A DNA stretch of 64,000 nt, taken from assembly GCF_046105845.1 (NCBI RefSeq), contig NZ_CP151004.1. The stretch is one strand, 5' to 3'. The stretch comes from Escherichia coli. GTDB taxonomy: Bacteria; Pseudomonadota; Gammaproteobacteria; Enterobacterales; Enterobacteriaceae. Under the pieces are notes generated by a model. The model made no database searches, was not told the origin of the DNA, and saw nothing but the letters and a program-made list of their open reading frames with translations. Positions 31,605 to 33,023 of the stretch are shown here, in pieces (within the stretch, counting starts at the first letter, position 1; each line of letters begins with the position of its first letter). A program made the translations under genes and the position numbers.

Positions 31605-33023
31605 ATGTTAGTTAGTAAAAGCAACGAAATTAACACTAGCACATTTATAAATAGTGGAAGTTGTAATGAAAGAAAATCTTCTAAATCCATGGAGTTACTA
31701 GCTTATAGTATTATAAAATTAATTTGTAAGGAAGCTGCCACAGGGACGTATAACGGTGCTCTTGAAATTTTACAAAAAATGATGTCTGAATGTAAATATC
31801 ATGAAAGCAATGCTTTTGTCATTATGGGAGCCGGAGAACAATTAAAACGTATTAAATATGATGTTAATGAAAATAAATTAAAAGTATACAACGTACACTT
31901 TGATAATAATCAAGAGTTAGTTGCTGATGGTGAGCCTGACGTAGTATTTTTAAAAAAAACGGTGTGGGAAGACCTTCTCGTTAAACTAAAGCTGGAGAAC
32001 AAAGAAAATGCGGTTTCTGAAGTTCATAAATCAGCGAATAAAGGTGAGATTGAGCAATTAGTTGAATGCTCTAAGAGAAATGAAAAGACGCTTCTTGATA
32101 ATATAAGTAAAAATACTGCTATCTATAATATTTACAATAACCAACGAGCAACAAACATTACTACATCTTTATCTGAACCACCTGCACAAGGTAAAAGTAA
32201 TGATGTAGATAAATTAAAACAAACGCAGTTTATCAATGCTAGTCAATTTGATATTAATGAGCTTCAGCAGAGTTCTGCTTTTTTAGCGTCAAAATATCAC
32301 ACCATAGATATTCAAGAAAAAACAGATGCGTTTGTGAAGAAGTTCAAGGGGATATTATTTGATAAAAATGGAAGGTCTTCAGAGCTTCTGTTTAATTTTT
32401 ATGAGTGTTGCTATAAGTTTTTACCAAGAGCGCAGCCTCAAGATAAAATTGAAAGCTATAATTCAGCACTGCAAGCTTTTTCCATCTTTCGTTCATCTAC
32501 TTTGAATAATAATGATGTAGGGTTTAATTTCAAATTATTCCCAGAAGTCAAGCTGTCTGGAGAACATCTTGAAACGGTATTCAAATACAAAAATGGCGAT
32601 GATGTCCGGGAGATAGCCAAAATTAACATTACTCTCCAAAAAGAAGAGGGTGGTTTATATAATTTACGTGGATTGGATTTTAAGGGATGCTTCTTTTCTG
32701 GACAGAACTTCAGTAACTATGATATTCAATATGTGAACTGGGGAACGTCATTGTTTGATCTTGATACTCCGTGTATTTTTAATGCGCCTGCTTACAACAA
32801 GAGTAATGAAAAATCATTAGAACGCGTCAGCGAAAACGGTTTAAGTGGAGTCTTGTCTGATCGTAATAATAAAATAAAACTCATCACGGGCGTGGCACCA
32901 TTCGATGATATTTTATTTATGGATGATGACTTTGATGATAGTTCTTCTGAGGATGATCCCGTTGAAAATAGTCCTGTTGTGACTAGTCCCCTTGTATCAA
33001 GTTCTAAAAGCAGTTTTCAATGA
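31605..33023 (+). CDS. Hypothetical protein with pentapeptide-repeat-like segment and acidic C-terminal tail (ypjC-like position)
   Basis: 472-aa AT-rich ORF; Ser/Thr/Asn-rich N-terminus; segment NLRGLDFKGCFFSGQNFSNYDIQYVNWGTSLFDL resembles pentapeptide repeats. Confidence 0.7.
   Translation: MLVSKSNEINTSTFINSGSCNERKSSKSMELLAYSIIKLICKEAATGTYNGALEILQKMMSECKYHESNAFVIMGAGEQLKRIKYDVNENKLKVYNVHFDNNQELVADGEPDVVFLKKTVWEDLLVKLKLENKENAVSEVHKSANKGEIEQLVECSKRNEKTLLDNISKNTAIYNIYNNQRATNITTSLSEPPAQGKSNDVDKLKQTQFINASQFDINELQQSSAFLASKYHTIDIQEKTDAFVKKFKGILFDKNGRSSELLFNFYECCYKFLPRAQPQDKIESYNSALQAFSIFRSSTLNNNDVGFNFKLFPEVKLSGEHLETVFKYKNGDDVREIAKINITLQKEEGGLYNLRGLDFKGCFFSGQNFSNYDIQYVNWGTSLFDLDTPCIFNAPAYNKSNEKSLERVSENGLSGVLSDRNNKIKLITGVAPFDDILFMDDDFDDSSSEDDPVENSPVVTSPLVSSSKSSFQ

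Follow-up and report, generated by a model that had tools for sequence, protein, structure and literature searches.

The 64,000-nucleotide (nt) stretch of Escherichia coli DNA analyzed here (contig NZ_CP151004.1; hereafter, the window) carries, in this order, nrdHIEF, stpA, the gab operon, the tRNA gene ileY, an open reading frame (ORF) of 472 codons plus stop, the autotransporter gene ypjA (also ehaD), and then ssrA, ffh and aroF. The ORF begins with ATG 752 bp downstream of ileY, exactly where an initial annotation made from the sequence alone had placed it, and its product corresponds to the NCBIfam family NF050179 (“YpjCB family protein”), which it matched with 946.6 bits against a cutoff of 650 over residues 1–464 of 472. 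Two Pfam domains account for the protein, DUF5507 (PF17612; residues 1–160, E = 4e-73) and DUF5508 (PF17621; residues 218–472, E = 7e-160), and both were present in each of 20 alleles compared. The two-domain architecture, the chromosomal position and the full-length match are shared with K-12 ypjC/ypjB (b2650/b2649). The K-12 copy is interrupted by a stop at codon 161, and the initial annotation was accurate in calling it a pseudogene; the window copy, in contrast, is intact. The window protein is 70–89% identical to the other clusters listed and 76% identical to the common 457-residue type, and only 5 of 5,426 complete E. coli genomes have a copy with 99% or more identity to this allele. The ORF is almost certainly an intact, rare and recombinant (mosaic) allele of ypjCB. 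As ypjCB is an already catalogued and named gene with no assigned function, the window contributes one more allele rather than a new entity.

Table 1 Features of the ypjCB locus, with positions in the window and ω (dN/dS) for genes and protein segments
Feature	Position	Strand	ω	Remarks
gabD			0.02–0.10	
glaH			0.01–0.08	
lhgO			0.03–0.16	
Alpha-amylase-like gene	27966..30218	−	0.08–0.22	750-residue ORF, intact
ileY	30778..30853	+		tRNA-Ile2, anticodon CAT; labeled Met by ARAGORN; RefSeq has tRNA-Ile at equal offset from ypjCB
AT-rich intergenic region	30854..31604	+		holds Shine-Dalgarno GAGGA at 31593–31597
ypjCB	31605..33023	+	0.52–0.99 (pooled 0.66)	
Hypervariable Ser/Asn/Thr-rich N-terminus, residues 1–28	31605..31688	+	1.04	MLVSKSN conserved, rest variable
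Conserved N module, residues 29–170	31689..32114	+	0.62	low confidence in structure prediction
Hypervariable cassette linker, residues 171–229	32115..32291	+	1.00	alternative cassettes and indels in alignment
Conserved C module, residues 230–445	32292..32939	+		defined by DUF5508, alignment and cropped structure model
Pentapeptide-like block, 7 pentads, residues 352–386	32658..32762	+		most conserved part of the protein
Acidic Ser-rich tail, residues 433–472	32901..33020	+		predicted disordered; pLDDT about 30
Strong stem-loop, 12 bp	33144..33171			120 nt past ypjCB stop; T-tract on minus strand only
Serine recombinase (pin-like) fragment	33322..33489	+		ORF; “recombinase family protein, incomplete” at that position in most loci with downstream flank
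ypjA/ehaD	33806..37819	+	0.21–0.30	1,337 residues, versus about 1,523 elsewhere
IS3-like element, ORF	37789..38835	−		region described here, with isrC and IS009 RNA: 37789..40187
isrC (Rfam)	38848..38970	−		
IS009 RNA (Rfam)	39946..40144	+		
ssrA	43039..43401			

The anatomy of the protein was derived from an alignment of 20 diverse alleles (Table 1). The Shine-Dalgarno sequence lies 7 nt 5′ of the ATG and was kept in all ten alleles inspected. An alternative start at the invariant Met29 was rejected; because the conserved Shine-Dalgarno sequence sits at the first ATG and none is found at Met29, we take the first ATG as the start of ypjCB. Residues 1–25 hold six Ser, two Thr and four Asn (12 of 25, 48%) and a single Leu. 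The initial annotation had described this segment as rich in Ser/Thr/Asn, which stands, and as devoid of acidic residues, which does not, given Glu8 and Glu22. The acidic, Ser-rich tail that it had also reported is real, with nine Asp, two Glu and ten Ser among 40 residues; the tail keeps an invariant aromatic-acidic motif, its conserved positions being Phe433–Asp434, Met439 and Asp441–Asp445 (MxDDFDD). Asn, Lys and Ser make up 9.3%, 9.3% and 10.2% of the whole protein, respectively. YpjCB contains no hydrophobic stretch (maximum 19-residue hydropathy 0.88); it therefore lacks a Sec signal and a membrane segment and is a soluble protein. Internal duplication of the N and C modules was considered and dismissed (hhalign probability 0.2%).

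The pentapeptide-like repeats noted in the initial annotation proved genuine and longer than listed. Seven pentads in register, YNLRG LDFKG CFFSG QNFSN YDIQY VNWGT SLFDL, are largely invariant across alleles; the central residue is hydrophobic in all seven and is directly preceded by Asp or Asn in five, a pattern matched by 3 of 20,000 shuffles (0.015%). The AlphaFold2 (AF2) model of the full-length protein had a predicted local distance difference test (pLDDT) score of 41 and was for that reason left out of the fold search. The cropped C module was modeled with a predicted template modeling (pTM) score of 0.67 and a pLDDT of about 80 over residues 236–394; the model comprises three helices and a three-stranded antiparallel sheet, followed by predicted β-bridges about every five residues through the pentapeptide-like block.

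We queried the mode of evolution of the gene using pairwise codon alignments of eight ypjCB alleles and of the neighboring genes from the same loci. Because dS is similar among these genes, the dN of ypjCB is about 10–50 times that of gabD, lhgO and glaH. Within ypjCB, ω fell to 0.14 over the pentapeptide-like block, to 0.06 over residues 346–375 and to about 0.25 over residues 256–315; it exceeded 1 in some 30-codon windows (3.0 for residues 316–345, 1.5 for residues 226–255), each reflecting few changes. Codons 1–28 were 75–83% identical at the nucleotide level between allele types, as against 90–94% for the 300 non-coding nt upstream (31305–31604), and residues 1–28 keep a Ser/Asn/Thr/Gly-rich composition while their sequence varies. 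Neutral evolution, simulated with the substitution spectrum seen in the data, produced 3–4 stops at 0.05–0.07 substitutions per site, with the frame remaining open in 0.5–3% of lineages. Since alleles that have diverged by 11–16% at the nucleotide level stay intact against this expectation, selection must have maintained the open frame. ypjCB genuinely codes for a protein, and purifying selection acts on the core of its intact alleles; the rest of the gene evolves at or near the neutral rate.

The alleles are, in addition, mosaics. The first 300 nt of the window allele are 99% identical to the type found in strain MLI106K4, while nt 1001–1150 (99%) and the tail (97%) all but match the K-12 type. 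The linker is a different cassette, a type of its own with 18–62% nucleotide identity to the linkers of other allele types.

The gene is confined to E. coli and Shigella. When 5.8 billion clusters were searched by word index, 431 matches came back, of which the best 120 with a source name were all E. coli or Shigella. HMMER, run exhaustively with a profile over 1.84 billion representatives, recovered a single full-length cluster and some fragments. In a set of 100,044 species-representative genomes, just one locus turned up, a 2.8-kb contig (DEQI01000374.1) of a metagenome-assembled genome named “Planococcaceae bacterium UBA3370”. It was discounted as a sign of wider distribution: its ypjCB coding sequence is identical to that of BW25113, codon-161 stop included, so that the contig is almost certainly K-12 contamination. 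No record in the phage collection searched carries ypjCB, and the matches in the plasmid database PLSDB comprised three chromosome-sized records (4.8–4.9 Mb) misfiled as plasmids and an 83-residue fragment (residues 218–300) on the 245-kb plasmid NZ_MN732922.1. The gene is present in 3,062–3,067 of the 5,426 complete E. coli genomes, a collection rich in K-12 derivatives, and absent from 44%; it always occupies a single chromosomal locus, with two matching places in a few genomes.

Where present, ypjCB is frequently broken. Twenty alleles sampled down the similarity ranking, including the window copy, comprised nine intact (window, E300010, MLI106K4, SCU-313, O157:H7 ATCC 35150, O145 RM10425, MRSN346595, EC42405 and cq9) and 11 disrupted ones, two K-12 records among them. 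At least five independent disruptions were distinguished: three nonsense mutations (codon 161 CAG>TAG, codon 154 GAA>TAA and codon 119 CAG>TAG), a 1-nt deletion in an A-run near codon 158, and a large deletion with an inserted island. Exact 66-mer matches over all 5,426 genomes placed the codon-161 stop in 1,226 + 189 + 3 = 1,418 genomes, the codon-154 stop in 36 and the matching intact local sequence in 88; at least 47% of carriers are thus null, and an intact copy can exist in at most about 30% of all genomes. Codon-161 TAG copies from unrelated strains (K-12, Pakistan, Cuba and Spain) differ by 0–2 nt over 1,374 nt, which argues that this null allele is young and has reached high frequency; this may reflect clonal sampling or a sweep. 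As a separate observation, the MG1655 record NZ_CP025268.1 has TAA at codon 161, shared by only three genomes, while BW25113 and the 1,226 genomes have TAG. ypjCB is dispensable: it is absent or null in most genomes and has often been lost.

The resemblance of the block to pentapeptide repeats was not borne out as homology in profile and fold searches. The initial annotation had proposed a profile search for pentapeptide repeats and effector families, and it returned no support. Of the Pfam pentapeptide models (PF00805, PF13576 and PF13599), only Pentapeptide_3 gave a match, at 8.8 bits against a cutoff of 27 (E = 2.6); any such model reached E ≤ 10 in just 4 of 20 alleles, at best with E = 1.5. 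The family profile found nothing at E ≤ 10 among all PDB sequences, a set that includes the solved pentapeptide-domain effectors SopA and NleL, and the fold search with the C-module model gave no match to any solved pentapeptide member. PADLOC-DB 2.0 yielded no family at E ≤ 1, and PHROGs yielded only phrog_30093, a function-unassigned family that covers YpjCB itself. Taken together, the word-indexed, exhaustive HMMER, PDB profile, PADLOC and PHROGs searches identified no informative remote relative. Two kinds of apparent match were set aside. A 3,960-residue adhesin-like protein (P0156; E = 8.5e-13) was rejected as a chance match because its 13 identical repeats “GLSNYSISYVNAPTGL”, each of which matches one short stretch, inflate the summed score; sub-threshold Pfam matches (FliS, CTD4 of ABC-3C, Ku_PK_bind and OmpH) are allele-specific and far below cutoff. 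The FliS (flagellar export chaperone) match seen in some alleles spans the helical bundle at residues 230–313 and scored 15 bits (cutoff 26.7), and the match to CTD4 of ABC-3C conflict systems, likewise in some alleles, scored 17.7 bits against 27.6 over residues 79–208; P0023, P0084 and P0105 are among the alleles with such weak matches.

Relative to bona fide pentapeptide-repeat proteins (Qnr and MfpA; the PipB2, SopA and NleL/EspX7 domains), the block shares 35 residues of five-residue periodicity and the [D/N]-[L/F/I/W] pattern. Family members fold as a right-handed quadrilateral β-helix; the YpjCB block is predicted to form β-bridges at intervals of about five residues. While members of that family contain dozens of pentads, YpjCB has seven, about 1.75 four-pentad coils, and unlike in pentapeptide-repeat proteins, its inward-facing i−2 position is often bulky (Tyr, Leu or Gln). 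The block thus resembles a pentapeptide repeat in pattern and, judging from the predicted model, probably in local structure; the searches place YpjCB neither in the pentapeptide-repeat family nor in any effector family.

From these data, a working model for YpjCB can be outlined. The protein may be an accessory binding or adaptor protein that faces a variable partner, be it a host, a phage or another cell, and that would use a conserved β-coil face together with the acidic tail for binding. An accessory binder fits better than an enzyme or a mere relic, because a constrained β-coil/acidic motif is combined with hypervariable segments, mosaicism and recurrent loss; this pattern does not appear to be that of a housekeeping enzyme, and no catalytic domain could be recognized. 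We put forward the non-enzymatic binder itself tentatively, and hold the explanation as a whole, in which the identity of the gene and the binder mechanism are blended, with slightly more than even confidence. Several points weigh against it: i) the binder mechanism derives from the evolutionary pattern alone; ii) the alignment behind the structure model was shallow (14 sequences with 81% or more identity to the first and a mean column identity of 91%), and modeling failed for the N module (pLDDT 41); iii) Cys268, Cys269, Cys362, Cys390 and His232 are invariant across alleles, and these residues could belong to an unrecognized enzyme; and iv) the overall ω together with the widespread null alleles would be compatible, too, with a gene in the course of being lost. 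A more elaborate version of the binder model is decidedly doubtful. Here, YpjCB would be an undescribed, E. coli-specific interaction protein that is either delivered into host cells or directed at phages or competitors, with a functional core of a minimal pentapeptide-type β-coil and an acidic short-motif tail; diversifying selection would act on its N-terminus and linker, and null alleles would be favored where the partner is absent.

The alternative that survives best, though we regard it as unlikely, is that ypjCB is a functionless, decaying relic of an old foreign island that remains intact in some lineages by chance. The absence from 44% of genomes, the stop codons in at least 47% of carriers, the recurrent independent disruptions and a pooled ω of 0.66 that approaches 1 in two segments are all as expected for such a relic, and the neighboring amylase-like gene and ypjA are often pseudogenes too. 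This reading does not account for the absence of stops from intact alleles that are 11–16% diverged, for which neutrality predicts 3–6 stops and an open frame in 0.3–3%, nor for a core ω of 0.06–0.25 and a conserved Shine-Dalgarno sequence and start codon. No null allele has more than one or two lesions, and the common null is young, so that loss is recent and was preceded by long maintenance.

The initial annotation had suggested an effector-like orphan acquired by horizontal transfer. The horizontally acquired orphan holds, while no search supports a pentapeptide effector; both observations that it had named as speaking against its proposal, a lack of pentapeptide-repeat or effector homology and disruption of the ORF in most relatives, are essentially what we obtained. 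In its full form, the proposal would make YpjCB a substrate of a type III secretion system (T3SS), of the PipB2 or EspX/NleL kind, with the Ser/Thr/Asn-rich N-terminus as signal and a T3SS encoded elsewhere (the locus of enterocyte effacement (LEE), ETT2 or Mxi-Spa). Non-LEE-encoded effector loci of pathogenic E. coli and Shigella are AT-rich, tRNA-adjacent, patchily distributed, accompanied by mobile-element debris and frequently pseudogenized, and their products lack a Sec signal and have a polar, Leu-poor N-terminus; ypjCB shares all of these traits, nulls in laboratory K-12 included. The N-terminal composition held through sequence change, the conserved pentapeptide-like stretch and the binding of the locus by Hha point in the same direction, as do intact copies in the sampled O157:H7 and O145 strains, serotypes that carry LEE, and in Shigella sonnei entries. 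Unlike those effectors, however, YpjCB has no effector homology, its only above-threshold matches being to its own NCBIfam family and to DUF5507/DUF5508. Neither the window, as the initial annotation had correctly stated for secretion systems, nor the annotated loci compared contain a T3SS or an effector locus, a gene for a dedicated chaperone is likewise missing from both, and there is no linked prophage. The N-terminal composition is partly what DNA of 33% GC encodes and includes two Glu, hypervariability is unusual for a functional signal, and we found no literature linking ypjC to secretion. We therefore consider a T3SS substrate improbable.

An intracellular single-gene conflict factor, for instance for anti-phage or anti-plasmid defense or abortive infection, would explain the fast evolution, the mosaic alleles and the presence/absence polymorphism, which are typical of defense genes. 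It would also suit the interval between ileY and ssrA, which behaves as an insertion hotspot: a reverse transcriptase island is found there in CFSAN004176, a SIR2-family gene in E300010 (locus 15580–16932), a P2-like prophage in MLI106K4 (locus 1–5480), and prophage remnants in the window and other loci. Four alleles weakly match the ABC-3C domain, below threshold (E = 0.0013–0.0027). Against these points stand the empty PADLOC search, the fixed chromosomal site, with no occurrence on phages or on any true plasmid save the 83-residue fragment, and the lack of a recognizable enzymatic or sensor domain, the weak Pfam matches being far below cutoff; we hold this possibility to be quite remote. 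In CFSAN004176 (NZ_CP014583.1, locus 7543–12100), ypjCB itself is truncated, and the adjoining insert encodes a helix-turn-helix protein, the reverse transcriptase and a MobQ relaxase.

The point lesions described above all fall in codons 119–161 (window equivalent about 31959–32087), at the end of the N module, a segment that accounts for only 11% of the stop-prone mutational paths of ypjCB; by our own rough scan-statistic estimate, clustering of the three nonsense mutations and the 1-nt deletion has p of about 0.02. The C-module frame was open in all nine point-lesion alleles examined, and in seven of them an in-frame ATG precedes the C module. The pattern is suggestive, and with few events could reflect a split gene or chance. 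Deletion of K-12 ypjC was reported to let a pathogenic strain colonize biofilms more readily, although K-12 has only the 160-residue piece, constitutive expression was without effect, and no mutant of ypjC could be obtained in strain 55989 (PMC3646849). That the “null” alleles are in truth split genes, whose N module (old “YpjC”) and, via the internal ATG, C module (old “YpjB”) function as separate proteins, is nevertheless very improbable, as independent events are few, the common null is too young for decay to show, two codon-154 alleles carry further frameshifts downstream of the internal ATG, and the deletion-cassette phenotype was not complemented.

ypjCB is a clean case of a species-restricted orphan gene demonstrably maintained by selection. 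Its core is conserved, other segments are hypervariable, its alleles are mosaics, and in the K-12 lineage a young null has high frequency. Since this null is the allele of K-12, the decades of genetics done in that strain reveal little of what ypjCB does; functional work belongs in a strain whose copy is intact, such as the source of the window. Should YpjCB prove to be exported as an effector or to act in conflicts, it would found a new family whose module is of a minimal pentapeptide type.

The surroundings of ypjCB are those of an AT-rich, eroded remnant of foreign DNA. The strong AT richness reported in the initial annotation was borne out, with a GC fraction of 0.335 in the coding sequence and 0.30–0.37 in the local profile, versus 0.55–0.60 in the gab operon. 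In other E. coli, the order is gabT-gabD-lhgO-glaH, the amylase-like gene, tRNA-Ile, ypjCB, a recombinase fragment, a small ORF and ypjA/ehaD; order and spacing between ileY and ypjA/ehaD are the same in the window as in E300010, K-12, SCU-313, O157:H7, O145 and EC01. We assign the tRNA to ileY because RefSeq has tRNA-Ile at that offset in other E. coli; mis-annotation of ileY-type tRNAs as Met has been noted (PMC3032704). The pin-like recombinase fragment is probably a remnant of the mobile element that brought in the island; no att-type repeat of the ileY 3′ end was found. Promoter-like matches in the intergenic region upstream of ypjCB were no commoner than in shuffled sequence, and a simple scan found no plus-strand terminator downstream of the gene.

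Regulation of the locus has been studied in K-12, where Hha binds the ypjC region (4.6-fold enrichment) and ypjC expression changed about 9-fold (PMC2408971); that study and the biofilm study both worked with the K-12 pseudogene allele. Such binding and regulation are as expected for AT-rich foreign DNA in a context of xenogeneic silencing. With xenogeneic K-12 genes bound by Hha/H-NS, ypjCB shares low GC, Hha binding and Hha-dependent expression, a likeness in regulation rather than in function, and one shown for the K-12 pseudogene allele rather than the window allele.

The alpha-amylase-like ORF upstream is AT-rich (36–41% GC) and under clear purifying selection; its counterpart is a pseudogene in K-12 (“alpha amylase C-terminal domain-containing protein”), as well as in O157:H7 ATCC 35150 and EC01. 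Downstream, the shortened ypjA/ehaD ORF was apparently cut off by the IS3-like element; the Rfam matches to isrC and IS009 RNA come next, and after them, as far as ssrA, prophage tail remnants.

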